A stretch of 11,953 bases of DNA from a virus. Taxonomy: Duplodnaviria; Heunggongvirae; Uroviricota; Caudoviricetes. Numbering within the stretch: position 1 is the stretch's first letter; every line of letters begins with the position of its first letter. Made by a program: the position numbers. Where the stretch lies: positions 1 through 11,953 of IMG/VR virus record IMGVR_UViG_2563366976_000008; one strand, given 5' to 3'. Of the stretch, positions 9,001 through 11,953 are shown one piece after another.

Positions 9001-11953
9001 GTTATCACTTCTGCTCTCATTGCTGGTTTGCGCTTGCATTGCAAGACCACTCGTGAGGGGGTTGGCCTGTGTAGCTTGTCGGAGCTGATCGCCTCCTGAC
9101 TTTGCAGATTTGCACGACGAGCTCTACGGCGAGAAGCTGCGGTTCCTTTAAATTCTGTTTTTCTGGACATAGATTCCTCCCGAATAAACTTTGGCGATGC
9201 AATCTCGAAGCCCCTCCTGAGACGGTTGCTTCGGCATTGCATCCCACAGCTTATGTGGTTGGGTGATCTGGCTTTTCAGCCACGTAGTCGAGTGTTCGAC
9301 GTTGTTTAAAGAGCCTGCCAATCTTTTCCGTTTGGCTACCAGCGTCCTGCTGATGGAAATAATAGTCACATATTGTGATTTAATGGTCAATCACAAAATG
9401 TGTAAAATAAGGGTGTGACACGTTATGTGTATGATTTTTTTGTGTAAATAGTTTTCCCCGCGATGGGTTTGCTTACTTAAGGCGGGGGAAACAGCAGGAT
9501 GGTGTGCTGAAAAGTTCGAAAAACGAGCGAAGTAGGTGGTGACGAGATGGCGGGATATGGGAGTTGTATTAAGAATTATAGTAATTTAATCAGAGGCTTG
9601 GGCTGGCTGGCAGGTGCTGTCCTGATAGTTATGTGCAGGCAACAAAAAACCCGGGGCGGTTCAGGTTGTCTCATTTTTTAGTTTGCTTTGGATTCGGTTT
9701 GTCTCTTCTTCCAATTATAAACACGCTAGTTAAAGCAACTAACTCAGCACCAAGAAGCCCGGTAGCCCAGCCATAAGCCTCGTGCTGAATCATCTTGTAA
9801 GCAATTCCTGCGAAAACAAAGACAGAAGTCATCGCAAAGATCTGTCCGAGTCGATCTCGCCAAATTGCTCCCCTCTGTCCTGCTTTGTAATACTCGTGTC
9901 TGTGTTTTTGCTCAGCCTTAGCCATGTCCATTATTTCGCGAGCGAATCCTGGAGATATTCTTTCGTACTTAGCTAATTCGTCAGCGTCTGGGAGTGGCCC
10001 TGATCTAGTGTGAGTCACCTGCATCATGATGCCAGCTAGATCTGGCCTGTCCATGAGGCGCTCAAGAACTTGAGGGTTCTTTGCGACCTCATTTATAAGC
10101 AGTTCGGTTTTACCGTCTTGAACTCGCCCTAACGGAGTTGGTTGGTTAACAAGATTTCTCGGTGCGGCGGTTTGAAGCTTTCTTTGGGATTTTTTTCTGC
10201 TCATTATCAGTTACAGCGTCTCTAACGTAACTACCTACCTTAACCCAATCTGAGTTGATAAGGTCGATGTCTGTAGCATTTGAATGATACTCGCTGTAGC
10301 TACCTGCTGGGCAAAGGTCAAGGATAGAGCCCATAGCGCTGAAAAAGTGCTTTGCAGATTTTTTCATGTGGGGTGTCCTATATGTTGTTTACTCTAATTT
10401 GAGTAATTGAAGTTTACGCAAAACCTAGCTTTCAGCAAGCAATACAGCACAAAAAATCATGTAAATTTGCGTCTATTTTTATCTACCGGAAAAATGCTCA
10501 ACAACTTTAGAGAAAAAATAGCAATACCAAATCAAACCAATTGCTGCTTCGCCTCTACCCAAACGTCTCTTCAGGCCACTGAGCCTTAACTACCTTGCCT
10601 ATGATGCGGCATGTGTGATCGCAGTCCAGGGTTCTGTATGCCGGATTCAATGGAACCAAGTAACTAACCCCTGCATCCTTCTCATACTTCTTGAACGTTG
10701 CCTCTGAATCACCATTTGCAGAAGCCACGCAGAAATCCCCAGACTCTACCGGCTCGGCCGGATCAACGAGTATCAGCATACCCTCAGGAAAACTCGGCCT
10801 TACGCCCTGTGGCGCAGTCATAGAATGGCCTTTCACCTCAAGCCAGAAAGCTTTTTCGCTGGCTTTTGTGGTCGTTGGGACCCATGCCTTTGCATCGCTT
10901 GCTGTGTAGCTTCCAACCTCCGAAAACGGCCCGGCCTGCACTGAAGAAAATAACGGGTACTCATATTGGCGAAATACAGCGTCTGAATCCTCGCCAAACA
11001 TTATTTTTGCCGGAGATACGCCGAGTGCCGCCCCAAGAACCAGCGCGTCATCCGCGCTAACCTTTCTTGTTCCTAACTCGTAGTTCCCCAGGCGTGAAGG
11101 CGCAGCCCAGCCGCAAAGCTTGGCCAATTGAGCCTGGCTAAGTCCTTTAGCTTCTCTAAGGGACTTGATCCTTTCCCCGATAATTTCATGCATCGTTTTC
11201 ATCCTTTAAATGTAACACGCAACGTGATTGAACTCTGTACACGAATTGAGGTTGACTGTTAATCACAAATTGTGTGTAATGGGTGTGTGATTAATACTAG
11301 GGAGACCGCAATGAACAAAATTGCCCAGCAGCGAAAAAAAATCGGAGTTTCGCAAGCTGTACTGGCTTCGGCAATTGGTTGGGGGCAATCCCGCATCGCC
11401 AACTATGAGCTGAATATCCGTACTCCTAGACTTAACGATTGCCGAAAGATCGTAGAAGGCCTCAGGAAGTTAGGGTGCCAATGTTCTTTGGATGATGTTT
11501 TCCCTCCATCCAGTAACAAAGCCGCCTAAGCAGTACCCGCTCTTTGTAACAACGGACATTCGTCCTACGTCGCTGAAAAGCGAGTCCCAAGATATCTGAC
11601 CAACTAAGGCCATATGCGTTTCCACGCATACCTTTCAACTAACTATTCACTATTGGAAATCTTAAGAAATGGAAAGAACAAGTTACAGCAAACTATCACA
11701 GCGTGACGTTGATCGCGCTGAAACAGATTTACTTATCAACCTGTCAACGCTTACTCAGCGCGGTCTGGCAAAGATGATTTGAACCGCCCCGGGAATCCTG
11801 GAGACTAAACTTCCTGAGAAAGAGGTAAACAGGATGACTAAAAATACTCGTTTTTCCCCTGAAGTCCGTCAACGGGCAGTCCGTATGGTTCTGGAAAGTC
11901 AGGGCGAATATGACTCACAATGGGCGACAATTTGTTCCATTGCTCCAAAGATT

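Follow-up and report, generated by a model that had tools for sequence, protein, structure and literature searches.

The stretch of 11,953 nucleotides (nt) that we analysed (positions 1 to 11,953 of the Caudoviricetes record IMGVR_UViG_2563366976_000008; hereafter, the window) contains a gene that very likely encodes CI, the repressor responsible for maintaining lysogeny, in a lambdoid prophage of the VT1-Sakai/Sp15/mEpX1 immunity type, most likely acting in the manner of the CI protein of phage lambda. The protein joins an XRE-type DNA-binding domain (the head) to a lambda-class S24 domain (the tail), and its gene represents a stable and widespread combination of two modules that can be exchanged. 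The first of them comprises the head together with cro and the operators and carries the specificity, and the second consists of the tail, responsible for cleavage and oligomerisation. A previous reading made from the DNA sequence alone had singled out this gene as a chimeric repressor; the feature is real and had been essentially correctly read, although it was already annotated in 2000. The gene and the protein elements on which this interpretation is based are the following:

10555 to 11202, minus strand: cI gene, 215 amino acids (aa) plus stop codon, 99.5% identity to CI of VT1-Sakai and mEpX1.
10987 to 11202, minus strand: DNA-binding domain (residues 1-72), XRE/434-P22-type helix-turn-helix (HTH), from Pfam and relatives in PDB.
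10558 to 10968, minus strand: lambda-class S24 C-terminal domain (residues 79-215), from Pfam and the lambda structures 3BDN, 1F39, 1KCA, 2HNF and 2HO0.
10930 to 10935, minus strand: codons of Ala90-Gly91, the predicted hinge self-cleavage bond, from alignment with lambda Ala111-Gly112.
10822-10824, minus strand: codon of Ser127, aligned with lambda Ser149.
10690-10692, minus strand: codon of Lys171, aligned with lambda Lys192.

The minus-strand open reading frame (ORF) that runs from 11202 to 10555 encodes 215 aa and a stop codon, according to the ORF list and a codon check. Its product is identical at 214 of the 215 residues (99.5%) to CI of VT1-Sakai (Sp15 of Escherichia coli O157:H7 Sakai, BAB19608) and mEpX1 (AFM76014), with T197S as the sole change, and the CI of phiSTEC801-Stx1a is likewise 99.5% identical. 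The VT1-Sakai record, which dates from 2000, describes its protein as 'CI protein; similar to bacteriophage lambda CI and P22 C2; maintenance of lysogenic state'. Two in-frame ATG codons, for Met1 and Met4 (11193), lie within positions 11191-11202, and the annotated start differs between records, being that of the 215-aa version in mEpX1 and that of a 212-aa version (Met4) in VT1-Sakai. Databases contain many copies of either version: the exact 215-aa protein, under the name 'LexA family transcriptional regulator', is found on about 655 E. coli contigs, and the 212-aa version is on about 504 contigs. In addition, CI belongs to PHROG 4 (phrog_4), 'transcriptional repressor' (E = 1.4e-54).

To compare the domains, repressors were taken from annotated phage records and their heads and tails were examined separately. 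The residue mapping and the identity of the tail to lambda are based on a MAFFT alignment of 14 sequences, and the 434 CI sequence used was 100% identical to the phage 434 records. The Pfam profile Peptidase_S24 (PF00717) matched CI residues 83-205 over its full length (E = 3.9e-26). In a PDB sequence search, the top match of CI was the lambda repressor 3BDN (E = 1.6e-51), with CI residues 76-215 aligned to lambda residues 97-236 without large gaps. Further matches were the lambda C-domain fragments 8GMU, 2HO0, 2HNF, 1KCA and 1F39, and the structures of LexA and UmuD matched weakly (E about 1e-3). Along residues 79-215, CI shares 83 of 137 positions (61%) with lambda. The parallel with lambda CI that the sequence-only reading had placed in the C-terminal 60 residues is thus real, but it spans the whole 137-residue tail and is weaker in that last part (32/60, 53%, for residues 156-215) than in the part preceding it (51/77, 66%, for residues 79-155). 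Within the C-terminal 60, only the closing eight residues, QWPEETFG, run identical to lambda, and in the region around the catalytic lysine (residues 161-200) identity falls to 42%.

Besides this terminal QWPEETFG, CI and lambda have in common a two-residue (KP) insertion. Neither trait is found in the tails of P22 C2, phage 21 CI and 434 CI, which belong to a different class and show lower identities to that of CI (46%, 47% and 39%, respectively), and the C-domains of HK022 and 933W align with CI over short stretches only (12/32 and 22/68 residues), too little for a useful comparison. The same reading would have the tail nearest to lambda, which holds against P22, 21, 434, HK022, 933W, LexA and UmuD, but not against three other phages. 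The Providencia phage PSTCR3 (67%), the Salmonella phage S107 (64%) and the Stx2 phage phiON-2011 (62%) have tails as close to CI as that of lambda (61%) or closer, followed by phage 2851 (61%), the Edwardsiella phage GF-2 (59%) and the coliphage mEp213 (42%). We therefore rejected lambda as the closest tail; among lambda-class tails, it represents only one of five lineages at roughly the same distance from CI.

The Ala-Gly site and the Ser motif recognised in the sequence-only reading were both confirmed: A90-G91, S127 and also K171 occupy the same alignment columns as lambda Ala111-Gly112, Ser149 and Lys192, and they are invariant across the panel of cleavable repressors, P22 C2, phage 21 CI and 434 CI among them. 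The cleavage site lies in a VQAG motif, as a hinge Ala-Gly bond of the kind found in S24/LexA-like repressors. With the profile match, the Ser-Lys dyad and this hinge bond, CI can be predicted to be an S24/LexA-like repressor. Around Lys171, residues 161-176 (10675-10722 of the window) have an extra residue and the 'SEATFKK'/'EATFKK' wording of the P22/434/Stx1_EH1995 class. This P22/434-like stretch within a lambda-class tail may reflect either sub-domain mosaicism or convergence.

The head is of another kind. The Pfam profiles HTH_31 (PF13560, E = 2.4e-11) and HTH_3 (PF01381, E = 2.8e-10) matched CI residues 8-66. The nearest relative in the PDB sequence search was C.AhdI, the controller protein of a restriction-modification system (E = 1.6e-6), then PezA, and after it the P22 C2 N-domain (E about 0.009-0.01) and the 434 repressor (E = 0.29); the lambda CI N-domain did not appear among the matches at E ≤ 1. 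Moreover, CI residues 1-78 gave no BLASTP match to the lambda N-terminal domain even at E ≤ 100, in agreement with the proposal of the sequence-only reading that the N-terminal HTH differs from that of lambda, whose N-terminal arm region also has no counterpart in CI. By these comparisons, the repressor lacks the lambda-type N-terminal domain of lambda immunity (imm-lambda). P22 C2, phage 21 CI and 434 CI do share with CI an XRE-type head (BLASTP E = 1e-7, 1e-9 and 2e-5, respectively) and the two-domain plan, although they remain distant from it both in the head (26-36% identity) and in the tail (39-47%).

We located the operators and promoters of this repressor on both sides of its gene:

11213-11229, 11237-11253 and 11261-11277: right operator region (OR; 11213 to 11277), three 17-bp sites, exact copies of the VT1-Sakai 'putative operators'.
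9364-9380, 9389-9405 and 9416-9432: left operator region (OL; 9364 to 9432), three 17-bp sites upstream of N, exact VT1-Sakai copies.
11252 to 11280, plus strand: putative rightward promoter (PR; TTGACT, 17-nt spacer, TGTAAT), read from the sequence and corresponding to the VT1-Sakai 'putative major rightward promoter'.
11209 to 11214, minus strand: putative -10 hexamer, TACATT, of the repressor maintenance promoter (PRM), 6 nt upstream of the cI ATG, recognised by side-by-side comparison with lambda.

The six putative operators of the VT1-Sakai record, three rightward and three leftward, are all exact in the window; the two differences from VT1-Sakai in the 108-nt spacer between cI and cro both fall outside the operators. 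The twelve half-sites have a consensus of about AAWCACAWW, with C4 and C6 in every half-site and A5 in 11 of the 12. The half-site of lambda is TATCACCGC, a lambda-immunity consensus from which the putative operators of the window depart: their positions 7-9 are A/T-rich where lambda has CGC/G, and only C4-A5-C6 are shared. Nevertheless, both kinds of operator are 17 bp long and have a CAC core around an N5 centre (CAC-N5-GTG). Likewise, the OR centres are located 19, 43 and 67 bp from the cI ATG (19, 42 and 66 in lambda), and OL and OR lie about 1.9 kb apart, compared with 2.4 kb in lambda. The non-lambda operators invoked in the sequence-only reading are therefore so in sequence, but not in length, core or position. 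These lambda-like distances, length and core coexist with a DNA-binding domain unrelated in sequence to that of lambda. As for PR in lambda, the putative PR is overlapped by the second and third (cro-proximal) right operators. The TACATT hexamer is placed exactly as TAGATT in lambda PRM, whose geometry gives a leaderless cI mRNA, and the region just upstream of the cI ATG resembles the lambda leaderless PRM region (TACATTTAAAGGATG vs TAGATTTAACGTATG).

Judging from the identities of CI (99.5%), Cro (70 of 72 residues) and the six operators, the prophage is of the VT1-Sakai/mEpX1 immunity type. It has been reported that mEpX1 belongs to an immunity group separate from that of lambda and that lambda/mEpX1 double lysogens can be built (PMC3442831).

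How did a lambda-class tail come to be associated with such a head? The similarity rankings of the two domains cross in several phages. The head of CI is 89% identical to that of S107, 72% to that of GF-2 and 63% to that of mEp213, but only 36% to that of 434 and 26% to those of P22 and phage 21, and the value for lambda (24%) does not correspond to a meaningful alignment. S107 and GF-2 have lambda-class tails, that of S107 being nearer to lambda (83%) than to CI (64%). In turn, the tail of mEp213 is 434-class (67% identity to 434 and 42% to CI), and phage 2851 has a tail 99% identical to that of lambda joined to a third, unrelated kind of head. The Lambdavirus PDP110P1 (OZ035751.1) even possesses a cI that is a direct hybrid of a VT1-Sakai-type gene and lambda cI: over codons 1-120, six of the eight 15-codon blocks match the gene type studied here at 100% nt identity and the remaining two at 93-98%, whereas over codons 121-215 each block has 91-100% identity to lambda cI. 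The hybrid has its junction in a conserved AFWLEV stretch, inside the C-domain and not at the hinge. Because the head and tail rankings cross in mEp213, S107, phage 2851 and PDP110P1, the exchange of domains, at or near their boundary, is a real and recurrent process in this repressor family, and the domain-level mosaicism claimed in the sequence-only reading was borne out.

An alternative would be that no exchange took place and that head and tail both descend from a lambda CI ancestor, the head having diverged faster under selection for immunity specificity. Such a joint descent would fit the arrangement of the operators, their CAC core and the geometry of PRM, all of them lambda-like, as well as the identity of only 61% between the tail and lambda, hence an old split, and the membership of both heads in one broad helix-turn-helix superfamily. 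However, differences in rate alone could not produce the crossed rankings, and we consider this alternative quite improbable.

Nor does the chimera seem to be recent. Recombination with phage lambda or a near relative of it would explain the terminal QWPEETFG and the 93% nt identity to lambda cI of the last five codons, and PDP110P1 demonstrates that recombination of this kind does happen. Nevertheless, along codons 76-210 the nt identity to lambda cI is only 48-73% per 15-codon block. This per-block comparison led us to reject a recent lambda chimera, for which tails at least as close in several other phages are also unfavourable. Furthermore, the same head-tail pairing already exists in Salmonella and Edwardsiella phages and in Cronobacter, Pantoea and Mixta genomes. 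We thus regard a recent origin from lambda as extremely improbable, and the combination as an old one given the 48-73% nt identity across most of the tail. The idea of a chimera holds in the sense of a lambda-class S24 domain on a non-lambda head, but not in that of a recent fusion with lambda.

On the basis of these features, a mode of action close to that of lambda CI can be proposed. CI dimers, held by the lambda-class C-terminal domain, would bind through their XRE heads to the 17-bp operators (half-site about AAWCACAWW), three in OR and three in OL. The C-terminal domain probably also mediates cooperative binding at adjacent sites and looping between OL and OR; by analogy with lambda, the operator spacing and the triple OL and OR sites 1.9 kb apart suggest that cooperative tetramers and octamers could be formed. 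Occupation of the promoter-proximal sites would shut off PR (cro) and the leftward promoter PL (N), and PRM could be activated from the middle OR site, whose centre is at -43 relative to the start of cI. Upon DNA damage, activated RecA would stimulate self-cleavage at Ala90-Gly91 by the Ser127/Lys171 dyad, parting the head from the oligomerisation domain and leading to prophage induction.

The SOS inducibility that the sequence-only reading had predicted fits published mitomycin C experiments. Early transcription of Sp15 and its circular DNA (about 40-fold) rise with mitomycin C (PMC2669165), and K-12 lysogens of mEpX1 are routinely induced with this compound (PMC3442831). Given the 99.5% identity of the CI proteins, these observations on Sp15 and mEpX1 indirectly support that the prophage studied here may be inducible as well.

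Several points weigh against this interpretation. At the level of the DNA, a strict consensus promoter scan called neither PR nor PRM, and the operators are only 'putative' in the VT1-Sakai record from which they were transferred. Likewise, the palindrome AATCAC-N5-GTGATT (≤3 mismatches) is not significantly enriched across the window, with 11 matches vs 6.3 expected and 11 of 200 shuffles reaching 11. The operator calls are not founded on this palindrome search, in which the three matches with ≤2 mismatches all fell inside OL or OR, but on placement and on exact identity with the annotated VT1-Sakai sites. At the level of the protein, our literature search found no biochemical cleavage or DNA-binding test of this CI, and the induction of Sp15 was measured in a strain with 18 prophages, which leaves room for indirect induction (PMC2669165). 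Finally, relatives with an identical CI encode Ant-family proteins, a possible second route to induction.

The last two points would be explained if the main way of inactivating CI were indirect, for example through an antirepressor, and the S24 domain served chiefly for oligomerisation; ANT and P22_AR_C family proteins are indeed encoded in the nin region of identical-CI prophages, and Sp15 was studied in a poly-lysogen. This is nevertheless unlikely, since purifying selection acts strongly on the cleavage site and on the Ser/Lys dyad, both of them intact, since mitomycin C induces mEpX1 in single lysogens of K-12, and since the tail of lambda, the closest characterised one, self-cleaves. We accordingly retain a lambda-like repressor sensitive to RecA as the most likely function. 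Two additional ideas, both very improbable in our opinion, concern the tail. First, lambda-class tails 60-70% identical might form mixed tetramers or octamers or compete for RecA, which would couple the switches of co-resident heteroimmune prophages. Second, residues 161-200, where the sequence diverges from lambda near the catalytic lysine, might set a cleavage rate, and with it an induction threshold, particular to this repressor.

The cI-OR segment is present in 105 of 5,426 complete E. coli genomes with 95-99% nt identity, and the immunity module shows 99.5-99.6% nt identity to that of E. coli ED1a and others. With respect to the VT1-Sakai allele, we detected 32 synonymous nt differences and a single amino-acid change, which indicates strong purifying selection on the whole protein. 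The synonymous differences are bunched in codons 124-149 and 182-197, both in the region coding for the C-domain, whereas codons 1-74 are identical to those of VT1-Sakai (in mEpX1, codon 12 carries a single synonymous change). Such a distribution would fit the exchange of patches between alleles that had diverged, with purifying selection acting strongly on them.

Repressor and architecture were, therefore, already known, and this is an ordinary, long-annotated CI. That lambdoid repressors are built in a modular way, from a head and a tail, is described in textbooks. A precedent was published in 2008 with the epsilon34 repressor, in which a protease domain resembling that of lambda (about 80% identical) is joined to a DNA-binding head that has diverged; its authors took this to mean that the RecA mechanism is unchanged and the operator specificity new (PMC2629481). 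Epsilon34, which we liken to our case from its published description, represents the same pattern with a different head family and in a different phage group. Accordingly, the repressor carries little weight as a discovery, and its interest lies rather in annotation: it fixes the immunity type of the prophage as VT1-Sakai/mEpX1, from which heteroimmunity with lambda and SOS-dependent induction are predicted. In addition, the natural hybrids PDP110P1, S107, phage 2851 and mEp213 illustrate where exchange occurs in these genes.

The genes around cI complete a classic lambdoid immunity region, with cI divergent from cro and the N antiterminator gene (PF25694, E = 2.4e-32) to the left of cI, in the same order as in VT1-Sakai and mEpX1. 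The other features of this part of the window are:

11311 to 11529, plus strand: cro, 72 aa, XRE-type HTH (Pfam HTH_3, E = 3.4e-9), 70 of 72 residues identical to VT1-Sakai Cro.
10146-10367, minus strand: 73-aa ORF (phrog_26284), co-oriented downstream of cI.
9671-10204, minus strand: 177-aa DUF2335 membrane protein (Pfam DUF2335; PHROG category 'moron').
9648-9667, minus strand: terminator-like hairpin, from the terminator scan.
11669 to 11782, plus strand: cII remnant, 37 of about 98 codons, from translation and comparison with VT1-Sakai CII.
11780 to 11953, plus strand: left end of IS629, running off the window, 100% identical to the IS3-family IS629 in phage records.

Cro is 41% identical to CI residues 10-53 over 44 residues (E = 2e-7), recognition helix included. 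Such a likeness across the recognition helix would be anticipated for two proteins that recognise the same operators. Cro appears as a paralogue of the CI head, with the common motif GW..SR(I/L).NYEL, and is not of the lambda-Cro type.

The two cargo ORFs downstream of cI (9648-10367 region) occupy the position of lambda rexA/rexB, and PADLOC gave no match for either of their proteins. At the same spot, VT1-Sakai carries H0053, mEpX1 has proteins of 159 and 310 aa, and ED1a proteins of 162 and 206 aa. Since prophages with an identical CI carry different genes there, the position downstream of cI is a cargo hot-spot, and it is one of the traits in which VT1-Sakai and mEpX1 differ from the window, another being the interruption of cII by IS629 in the latter. 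Other parts of these prophages vary as well: among five loci of E. coli prophages with an identical CI, four have lambda O/P and one a DnaB-type helicase, and the Ant and P22_AR_C family genes of their nin region are a further case of typical lambdoid mosaicism.

The stop codon of the cII remnant is supplied by IS629. The presence of CI together with the disrupted cII suggests that this prophage can be maintained and induced but is probably poor at establishing lysogeny after infection. Positions 2555-11953 of the window are 100% identical to the E. coli assembly GCA_000351465.1 (KB732669.1). Among complete RefSeq E. coli genomes, the best coverage of positions 9300-11953 was 66%, and among the phage records searched the best coverage of the whole window was 36%.

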